From the IMG/VR virus record IMGVR_UViG_3300027759_003166: a stretch of 64,000 nucleotides of DNA. The stretch is one strand, 5' to 3'. The position numbers and the translations under genes were made by a program. Numbering within the stretch: position 1 is the first letter of the stretch; every line of letters starts with the position of its first letter. Positions 20,498 through 21,588 of the stretch are shown here, in pieces. The DNA comes from a virus (taxonomy: Duplodnaviria; Caudoviricetes). Under the pieces are notes generated by a model. That model had not been told where the DNA came from, ran no database searches, and saw only the letters and a list, made by a program, of their open reading frames with translations.

Positions 20498-21364
20498 ATG
20501 GAATCAACTACCAGCCCACAATTAAATCCATTGTCCATGTTTATGCGCCAACCAAAGATTTATATTCGTTTGCCCAGCAACGGAGAATATTGGCCTGAAA
20601 AAAGTTTTGTGCCCAGCGAAACTGGAGAATATCCAGTTTTCTCAATGACCGCCCAAGACGAAATGTTGCTAAAAATTCCAGACGCATTAATGAGTGGGCA
20701 AGCTGTAGTTGATGTTATTCAGCATTGTATGCCTAACATTAAGAATGCGTGGGACACTCCAACTATTGATCTTGATGTAATATTGATTGCTATTAGACTA
20801 GCTACCTACGGTGAAACTATGAGAACTCCTATTAAGATAGGAGAAATTGAAATGGAATATGTAGTTGATCTAAGAACCGTTATGGATTCATTGCAAAGTA
20901 GAATACAGTGGGTTCCTTATATTCCTGTCAGTGACGAACTTACATTATTTGTAAGACCTGTTAATTATAAACAATTATCTCAAGCTGCTCTACAAGCATT
21001 TGAAACTCAAAAAATAATTCAAATGTCTAATAATGACAACATGAGTGAAGAAGATAAGATTAAACTCTTTAAAGAAAGTTTTTCAAAATTAACAGAACTT
21101 ACCATTGGTACAATAAGCGCCAGCATTTATCAAATTGACTCCTCAAATGGTTCAACTGATAATCCAGCGTTTATCAAAGAGTTCATTGACAATGTTGATA
21201 GAGTAATATTTGATAAAATCCAGAAACATTTAGAAACATTAAAAGAGAATAACTCTGTTAAACCTGTAGTTGTTCCTGTTTCAGAAGAAATGCGAGCAAA
21301 TGGTATAACTAGTGATACTATTGAAATTCCATTAACGTTTGACGTATCAAATTTTTTCGTCTAA
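20498..21364 (+). CDS. Baseplate hub / tail assembly protein (T4 gp26-like)
   Basis: MRQPKIYIRLPSNG...PVFSMTAQDEMLLK.PDAL...DLDVILIAIRLATYGE; GGAG SD. Confidence 0.8.
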   Translation: MESTTSPQLNPLSMFMRQPKIYIRLPSNGEYWPEKSFVPSETGEYPVFSMTAQDEMLLKIPDALMSGQAVVDVIQHCMPNIKNAWDTPTIDLDVILIAIRLATYGETMRTPIKIGEIEMEYVVDLRTVMDSLQSRIQWVPYIPVSDELTLFVRPVNYKQLSQAALQAFETQKIIQMSNNDNMSEEDKIKLFKESFSKLTELTIGTISASIYQIDSSNGSTDNPAFIKEFIDNVDRVIFDKIQKHLETLKENNSVKPVVVPVSEEMRANGITSDTIEIPLTFDVSNFFV

Positions 21365-21588
21365 GGCTTTTACATCTTGATCTTCCAGAGATTGAAAAAC
21401 TAGTCAAAGAATATGATGCAGATGTAAAAGCCATAAAAGAAGAAATAATGAAGCTATGTTGGTTTATGCGTGGCAGTCTAAGTTATACAGAAGCACACAT
21501 GCTCACTGGTGATGAACGTATGTATATTGCTAATCTAATATCTAGTAATTTAGAAACAACTAAGACCAGCGGTATGCCGTTCTTTTAA
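21355..21588 (+). CDS. Unannotated ~77-aa -1-frame ORF (gp51-like), probably reached by frameshift from the gp26-like gene
   Basis: Open from the slippery run to TAA at 21586-21588: FRLRLLHLDLPEIEKLVKEYDADVKAIKEEIMKLCWFMRGSLSYTEAHMLTGDERMYIANLISSNLETTKTSGMPFF. First ATG only at 21448, with no clear SD. Confidence 0.7.
   Translation, partial: FRLRLLHLDLPEIEKLVKEYDADVKAIKEEIMKLCWFMRGSLSYTEAHMLTGDERMYIANLISSNLETTKTSGMPFF

Follow-up and report, generated by a model that had tools for sequence, protein, structure and literature searches.

The stretch of DNA analysed here, called the window, comprises 64,000 nucleotides (nt) of a tailed virus (Duplodnaviria; Caudoviricetes) and is taken from the IMG/VR record IMGVR_UViG_3300027759_003166, which is 80.6 kb long with an estimated completeness of 23%, implying a genome of ~350 kb. 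The runs that contain the window sequence are lake and freshwater metagenomes, and blastn against phage records gave no match for the locus. The virus is regarded as a T4-type jumbo phage, and the gene in question encodes a protein resembling gp26 of bacteriophage T4. It matches the Pfam family PF12322 (T4_baseplate; E 9.6e-9, 35.7 bits, gathering cut-off 24.5) and phrog_150, annotated as ‘baseplate hub’ (E 1.4e-11), and 4392 homologues of it were found. The gene ends TCA AAT TTT TTC GTC TAA, with the stop at 21362-21364, exactly as described in an earlier note on this DNA, and beyond the T-run a second reading frame, shifted by -1, stays open. Judging from the comparison of related loci, it is very probable that this gene is decoded into a short and a long protein by a programmed -1 ribosomal frameshift. 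The features of the locus are collected in Table 1.

Table 1. Positions of the proposed recoding elements and of further features at the locus (window coordinates).
Feature	Position	Strand	Remarks
Slippery heptamer T_TTT_TTC (U_UUU_UUC)	21352..21358	+	X_XXY_YYZ phase; zero-frame codons AAT TTT TTC
Spacer GTCTAA, 6 nt	21359..21364	+	holds the zero-frame stop
5′ arm of the 13-bp putative stimulatory stem, GGCUUUUACAUCU	21365..21377	+	predicted fold, covariation
3′ arm of the 13-bp stem, AGAUGUAAAAGCC	21420..21432	+	predicted fold, covariation
-1 extension, 76 codons (RLRLLHLDLPEIEKL...GMPFF) + stop	21358..21588	+	with residues 1-287 gives the predicted 363-aa long form
Zero-frame open reading frame, short form, 288 aa	20498..21364	+	gp26-like (TAC-N-like) baseplate hub/tail assembly protein
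GGAG, Shine-Dalgarno sequence of the gp26-like gene	20486..20489	+	8 nt before ATG; read directly
TATAAATA, equal to the T4 late-promoter consensus	20436..20443	+	55 nt before ATG; read directly
Neighbour of 765 aa, putative tape measure (gp29-like)	18114..20411	-	divergent; first in portal-protease-capsid operon; inferred

The comparison set consisted of 59 IMG/VR loci, whose gp26-like proteins show 96% to 41% identity, and of 13 cultured-phage regions (Atu_ph07, Phosso, PA5oct, RaK2, PBECO4, GAP32, CBB, Vibrio 2.275.O, RsoM2USA, RAS14, XbC2, SCTP-2, and Munch). Together with the window it holds 73 loci and 53 distinct sequences, and protein identity reaches down to ~25%. The earlier note had asked that homologues keep the slippery run and its relation to the -1 frame, and they do: TTTTTTC is found in 51 of the 53 distinct sequences and TTTTTTT in the other two, always in the X_XXY_YYZ phase and followed by a conserved -1 open reading frame (ORF). 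The slip site is present in all 17 cultured Rak2-like jumbo phages inspected, e.g., PA5oct, RaK2, 121Q/PBECO4, GAP32, CBB, and Atu_ph07. The codon that precedes the T-run takes nine forms (AAT, ACT, AGT, CAT, GCT, GTT, CGT, TAT, and GAT), which specify nine different residues, yet all are NNT. The codon after the heptamer begins with G in 50/53 sequences, and among 120 homologues the last residue of the short form covers everything that GNN can encode (V 58, A 32, G 23, E 6, D 1). Read in the -1 frame, the same bases always yield Arg (CGN). The variability of the GNN residue beside the constancy of Arg indicates selection on the -1 reading, upstream of any start codon. Constraint is thus seen at positions where the zero frame would permit synonymous or other changes. 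Past the slip site, variability by codon position tracks the -1 frame in an alignment of 35 sequences, and within 300 aligned nt of these sequences TTTTTTCG is the sole invariant 8-mer. The slip-site region is the most conserved DNA stretch in the locus. The site itself is established by comparison. The earlier note had proposed two overlapping heptamers, and only one of them stands: the second candidate, A_AAT_TTT at 21349-21355, is not conserved, since it occurs only where the preceding codon is AAT. Motifs of the type H_HH.U_UU.Y, including U_UU.U_UU.C, are among the most efficient in Escherichia coli, and U_UU.U_UU.C is found in some insertion sequence (IS) elements (PMC4066793). As a separate observation, a contig of another phage in two lake DNA runs matches only positions 21323-21359 (37 nt, three differences) and then continues into unrelated sequence, GATGAGACTCC...

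The second element is a predicted RNA stem 3′ of the heptamer, for which the window gives a minimum free energy of -23.9 kcal/mol and a z-score of -4.5. In an alignment of 29 sequences, 86.5% of the stem cells are paired; displacing the 3′ partner by 1-3 columns lowers this to 33-55%. Compensatory change on both sides is seen in 32 stem cells, a figure reached by 0/500 shuffles, and it is by this comparison that the stem is established. It closes a loop of ~42 nt, and folding inside the loop is not conserved. Besides the freshwater relatives, Atu_ph07 and Phosso have an equivalent long-range stem built from different paired bases (z -5.3 and -4.3, respectively). Relatives have between 1 and 11 sense codons from the heptamer to the zero-frame stop, which indicates that the stop is not part of the signal.

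The -1 frame of the window is open from 21343 to its stop at 21586-21588. It was earlier said to lack an ATG until 21448, which was borne out, and GTG and TTG are absent before that position as well, so the first potential start is codon 33; the list of ORFs for this region shows only one of 46 amino acids (aa). The 81-aa -1 frame gave no Pfam, PHROG, or NCBIfam match. All relatives have a conserved -1 frame of 72-90 codons starting FF(R/Q), and in 22 of the 53 sequences no ATG, GTG, or TTG occurs before codon 13. Because the conserved Arg after the slip lies inside the overlap, independent initiation cannot account for it. Among 1.84 billion representative proteins, 431 were matched by a profile built from the 78 residues of the extension (alignment A1). 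Approximately 18 representatives among them are single ORFs of 319-351 aa that carry the extension as their C-terminus, and PF12322 was found in the N-terminal part of 9/9 such long forms scanned. In alignment A3, the short ORF ending ..FDVSNFF and the -1 ORF beginning FFRLRLL.. are colinear with these continuous proteins (..LDYCNNF|RNQIL..; general pattern ..LDxxxxF|RxxLI..), and the alignment needs no gap where the slip would occur. This comparison likewise establishes that the long form is colinear with its single-ORF homologues. One continuous long form was modelled with AlphaFold at high confidence throughout, including a four-helix tail (predicted local distance difference test 93.6, predicted template modelling score 0.86). 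A Foldseek search of this model against the PDB gave nothing at E <= 0.001, and VIA-align found generic helical hairpins only, with Z up to 8.1 over ~55 residues. One protein with eight stretches in the profile search, P0203 (2476 aa), was set aside as a spurious match to Listeria-Bacteroides repeats.

Phages with a continuous long gene show how the site looks where no shift is needed. At the positions equivalent to the slip site, their long genes use varied codons (AAC TTT CGT, CTA TTT AGA, ACA TTC AGA, AGT TTC AGA, and CGT TTT CGT), and the short paralogue beside the long gene ends with varied FF, FM, or FI codons. Invariance at the nucleotide level is, therefore, specific to the genes that would require the shift. 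In 5/5 loci examined, the continuous long gene is immediately preceded by a PF12322 paralogue in tandem; this paralogue, of 287-319 aa, has no tail and terminates soon after the xFF motif. T4 itself falls into the same family with both proteins, gp26 (208 aa; PF12322, 215.6 bits, E 9e-64) and gp51 (249 aa; PF12322, 177.5 bits, E 4e-52), which are listed as hub assembly chaperones in a review (PMC3004832). When profiles are compared by hhalign, the long form aligns end-to-end with the gp51 family (73%, E 3e-5). Matches of the long-form profile to single T4 sequences were only short or odd, and single-sequence hhalign of the extension profile was uninformative (0.5% for T4 gp26, 3% for T4 gp51). 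The tail family PF28602 appears in stored annotations of gp51 homologues; the Pfam scan of T4 gp51 did not report it. The downstream frame had been taken for a gp51-like gene in its own right, and this part of the earlier reading has to be given up: the frame corresponds only to the C-terminal tail that distinguishes gp51-type long forms. The proposed equivalence with G/GT of bacteriophage λ gains support from the short and long tandem paralogues in shift-less relatives and from the shared family of gp26 and gp51. The paralogue pairs, the PF12322 matches of the T4 proteins, and the alignment of the long form together suggest that one gene yields both a gp26-type and a gp51-type protein, as λ G yields G and GT. 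In other T4-type phages, two genes encode the short and long PF12322 proteins to which these two products would correspond. It can be added that the N-terminal part of the family profile (columns 36-106 of A3, to the first CxxC) aligns with residues 113-198 of T4 gp26, to its last CxxC (hhalign 65%); this alignment to the C-terminal half of gp26 hints at an internal duplication within PF12322.

It is proposed that the majority of ribosomes stop at the TAA at 21362 and release the 288-aa short form, and that a fraction of them, with tRNA-Phe in the P and A sites, slip by -1 on U_UUU_UUC. The stem, located 6 nt downstream, would pause ribosomes at the heptamer. Shifted ribosomes would then read CGU CUA AGG.. 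up to 21585, producing 363 aa, so that the long form would consist of the same 287 N-terminal residues and a 76-residue helical tail. The earlier proposal, a -1 shift fusing the gp26-like ORF to the following frame, agrees with an in-phase heptamer, a 6-nt spacer, a covarying stem, a conserved -1 ORF that has no conserved start, and a colinear product. We infer the ribosomal nature of the shift, its efficiency, and the chaperone role of the products. As they correspond to the pair that in T4 is gp26 and gp51, both listed as hub assembly chaperones, the two products likely form a G/GT-like assembly chaperone pair for hub and tape measure. The portion of the CBB virion mass-spectrometry table that covers CBB_247 to CBB_251 does not contain CBB_250 and CBB_249, and PA5oct gp336 has no mass-spectrometry note where its neighbour gp335 has one, which is weak evidence and concerns relatives only. 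In the portions of the CBB and PA5oct data considered, a virion assignment is given for the adjacent putative tape measure but not for the gp26-like protein.

The same long protein could arise by transcriptional slippage, i.e., RNA polymerase adding one U in the T6 run of some transcripts, and the product sequence would equal that of a ribosomal shift. The homopolymer invites this explanation, the more so in RsoM2USA and RAS14, where the heptamer is T_TTT_TTT and the run counts 9 T and 7 T, respectively; these are the members for which transcriptional slippage is most plausible, and their extensions are diverged and longer than the others (..RSRD.., 85-91 aa). The run, however, is held at exactly 6 T in 47/53 sequences and reaches 7 T in four others (where GTT precedes it, or the heptamer is T_TTT_TTT), and six T are short for efficient slippage by bacterial RNA polymerase. 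A conserved stem at ribosomal spacing is also at odds with it: lying 3′ of the run, the stem cannot act on a polymerase that has yet to transcribe it. In an RNA library from a lake, one contig spans 21203-21550 without an indel, colinear with the DNA, and the gene upstream of 20910 has no cover; the contig is weak evidence, because contigs mask minor variants and RNA libraries can contain DNA. On this evidence, transcriptional slippage is regarded as improbable for the window.

Separate translation of the downstream frame by coupling, reinitiation, or a non-AUG start, giving a free peptide of ~70 aa, would better suit the annotation of a small downstream ORF in several GenBank records and the ATGA (ATG overlapping the TGA stop) in Atu_ph07, Phosso, and the IMG/VR-derived locus L026. 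In these three, however, the ATG just fills a hydrophobic L/I/V/M position where the TGA gives ATGA. In 24 of the 53 sequences, a TTG stands at codon 7 after AAGG, and some initiation of its own is possible there, but AAGG and TTG sit within the 5′ arm of the stem. No start is conserved: the window offers none before codon 33 and PA5oct none at all. The residues ahead of any start, F-F-R-h-x-L-L, are conserved and align with the single-ORF homologues. Separate initiation would also leave the invariant heptamer and the NNT before it unexplained. We therefore give it very little credence for the window, and as the conserved mechanism it is unlikely. That the arrangement has no function, and reflects a heptamer arisen by chance, misassembly, or gene decay, is scarcely credible: TTTTTTC does occur in the window at the rate expected by chance (24 copies vs 23.9), so that the heptamer alone is not above chance, but the arrangement recurs in 73 independent loci from many samples and cultured phages with the -1 ORF intact everywhere, and DNA contigs of three further runs agree with the window at the locus.

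Besides the TTG at codon 7, several observations weigh against a programmed ribosomal shift or against its reading as a G/GT-like system. The long protein itself is a prediction from comparison. Enterobacterial jumbo relatives show only weak predicted 3′ structures (z ~0 to -1). The ratio of nonsynonymous to synonymous substitution rates in the segment before the first ATG does not discriminate between frames (0.64, 0.80, and 1.52 by frame, the zero frame having 0.80), being uninformative owing to saturation and the overlapping RNA constraint. Searches against Pfam, PHROG, and NCBIfam gave no match to a tail assembly chaperone family, and no solved fold was matched. The tail alone is not detectably similar to T4 gp51 (hhalign 2.5%, in the same register). 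Finally, the gp26-like gene diverges from the putative tape measure gene instead of preceding it. A tape-measure-like neighbour had been named as part of the argument, and a candidate is present; it is transcribed divergently, though, and has no family match in the Pfam, PHROG, and NCBIfam scans.

The arrangement can be set beside known systems. A conserved -1 frameshift of tail assembly chaperone genes, with λ G/GT as the example, was reportedly described by Xu, Hendrix and Duda in 2004. The window resembles λ G/GT in two nested products made by a -1 shift, here deduced by comparison, beside a putative tape measure gene, and in that the products of relatives are apparently not virion components. 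It differs in the protein family (PF12322, not Pfam Phage_TAC, and no fold match was found) and in the heptamer (U_UUU_UUC vs G_GGA_AAG), and its extension is 76 aa. A λ-type gene is flanked by the tube and tape measure genes, all on one strand, whereas the window gene (+) is divergent from the putative tape measure gene (-). With T4 genes 26 and 51, the window shares the family PF12322, to which its N-domain, gp26, and gp51 all belong, and the same pair of short and long proteins, and metagenomic long forms carry the same C-terminal tail as the window. T4 and the other two-gene phages, in contrast, use two genes without recoding, and the slip-site codons vary in the two-gene phages. T4 gp51 has a tail that is ~25 residues shorter and shows no detectable similarity when compared by itself, and the four Cys of the zinc-ribbon-like motif of the gp51 family are missing from the window protein. 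In common with dnaX and orfAB of IS3/IS911, the site has an X_XXY_YYZ heptamer, a spacer within 5-9 nt, and a 3′ stem or pseudoknot; unlike in those, no upstream Shine-Dalgarno-like stimulator is visible in the window, and the stem closes a large loop of ~42 nt.

To our knowledge, T4 was long the exception among long-tailed phages in having no frameshifted tail assembly chaperone. According to papers that cite them, Vladimirov, Gautam and Davidson apparently identified gp26/gp51-type tail assembly chaperones in T4-like phages in 2022 (Virology 566:9-15). Citing that work, a passage of the PRFect paper states that some T4-like phages have a short gene and a longer fusion gene without frameshifting (PMC10885494), and a passage in another paper refers to poly-T slippery sequences in the TAC-N genes of T4-like phages (PMC12846349). 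This account of TAC-N/TAC-NC genes shows that the principle is already published; what may be new here is this clade, the extent of the conservation, the stem, and the evolutionary relation. A slippage join is annotated in none of the 17 GenBank records inspected, where the tail is missing or is called a separate hypothetical protein, and this gap in annotation extends to thousands of metagenomic relatives. The full texts of papers on PA5oct, MIJ3, RaK2-like phages, CBB, Atu_ph07, XacN1, RsoM2USA, and phAPEC6, and of a comparative review of jumbo phages, do not mention a frameshift. Frameshifting relatives of gp26 and gp51 would tie the two hub-assembly chaperones of T4 directly to the G/GT principle, and the PF12322 family would contrast recoding with gene duplication as routes to the same protein pair. 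Several such phages have E. coli, Klebsiella, or Pseudomonas hosts, which opens the ratio of short to long form and their roles to experiment.

How the two arrangements are related was considered with a maximum-likelihood tree of the N-domains. In this tree, continuous long forms make up a basal grade, and a clade (98/94) unites the frameshifting genes with the short paralogues, the latter being nested within it (99/97). The T-run is kept at the homologous spot in 2/5 short paralogues. The short paralogue of one two-gene phage (L068:3915-4028) ends GAT TTT TTT GCA AAA TAA, and its -1 frame, FFCKIILHL.., resembles the start of the window extension, FFRLRLLHL..; this end may be what is left of an earlier frameshift site. 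Which way the change ran is uncertain, as the root of the tree rests on the very long branch of T4 gp26. It is possible, though on balance doubtful, that the entire Rak2-like jumbo-phage lineage shares with its freshwater relatives a -1 shift in PF12322 genes, with a covarying stem, that is undescribed so far and ancestral to the two-gene arrangements. If it is true, then the family would be a natural series in which a recoding site is replaced by gene duplication.

Concerning the surroundings of the gene, the motif upstream of the Shine-Dalgarno sequence is presumably a promoter, an assumption made by analogy with the known T4 late promoters. The minus-strand late operon has the order of the 765-aa protein, gp20 portal, gp21-type protease, and gp23 capsid protein. 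In PA5oct and CBB, the orthologues of the 765-aa protein belong to the virion, and for the RaK2 orthologue the record mentions similarity to a tape measure. On the other side, a convergent 188-aa ORF (21585-22151, minus strand), rich in P, T, A, and G, overlaps the last extension codons by 4 nt; it matches nothing but phrog_14234, weakly, a family of unknown function. The gp26-like protein of the window and its counterparts in close freshwater relatives have neither of the two CxxC pairs that belong to the zinc-ribbon-like motif. Continuous long forms, gp51-family members, and most homologues from cultured jumbo phages possess both. The window has IKIGEIEMEY where the first pair would be and, where the second would be, VSEEMRANGITSDT, a longer stretch free of Cys. 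In one relative with two paralogues, GCA_015689235.1, the Portal_T4 region of the 1015-aa portal product is interrupted by an intein splicing domain (PF14890).

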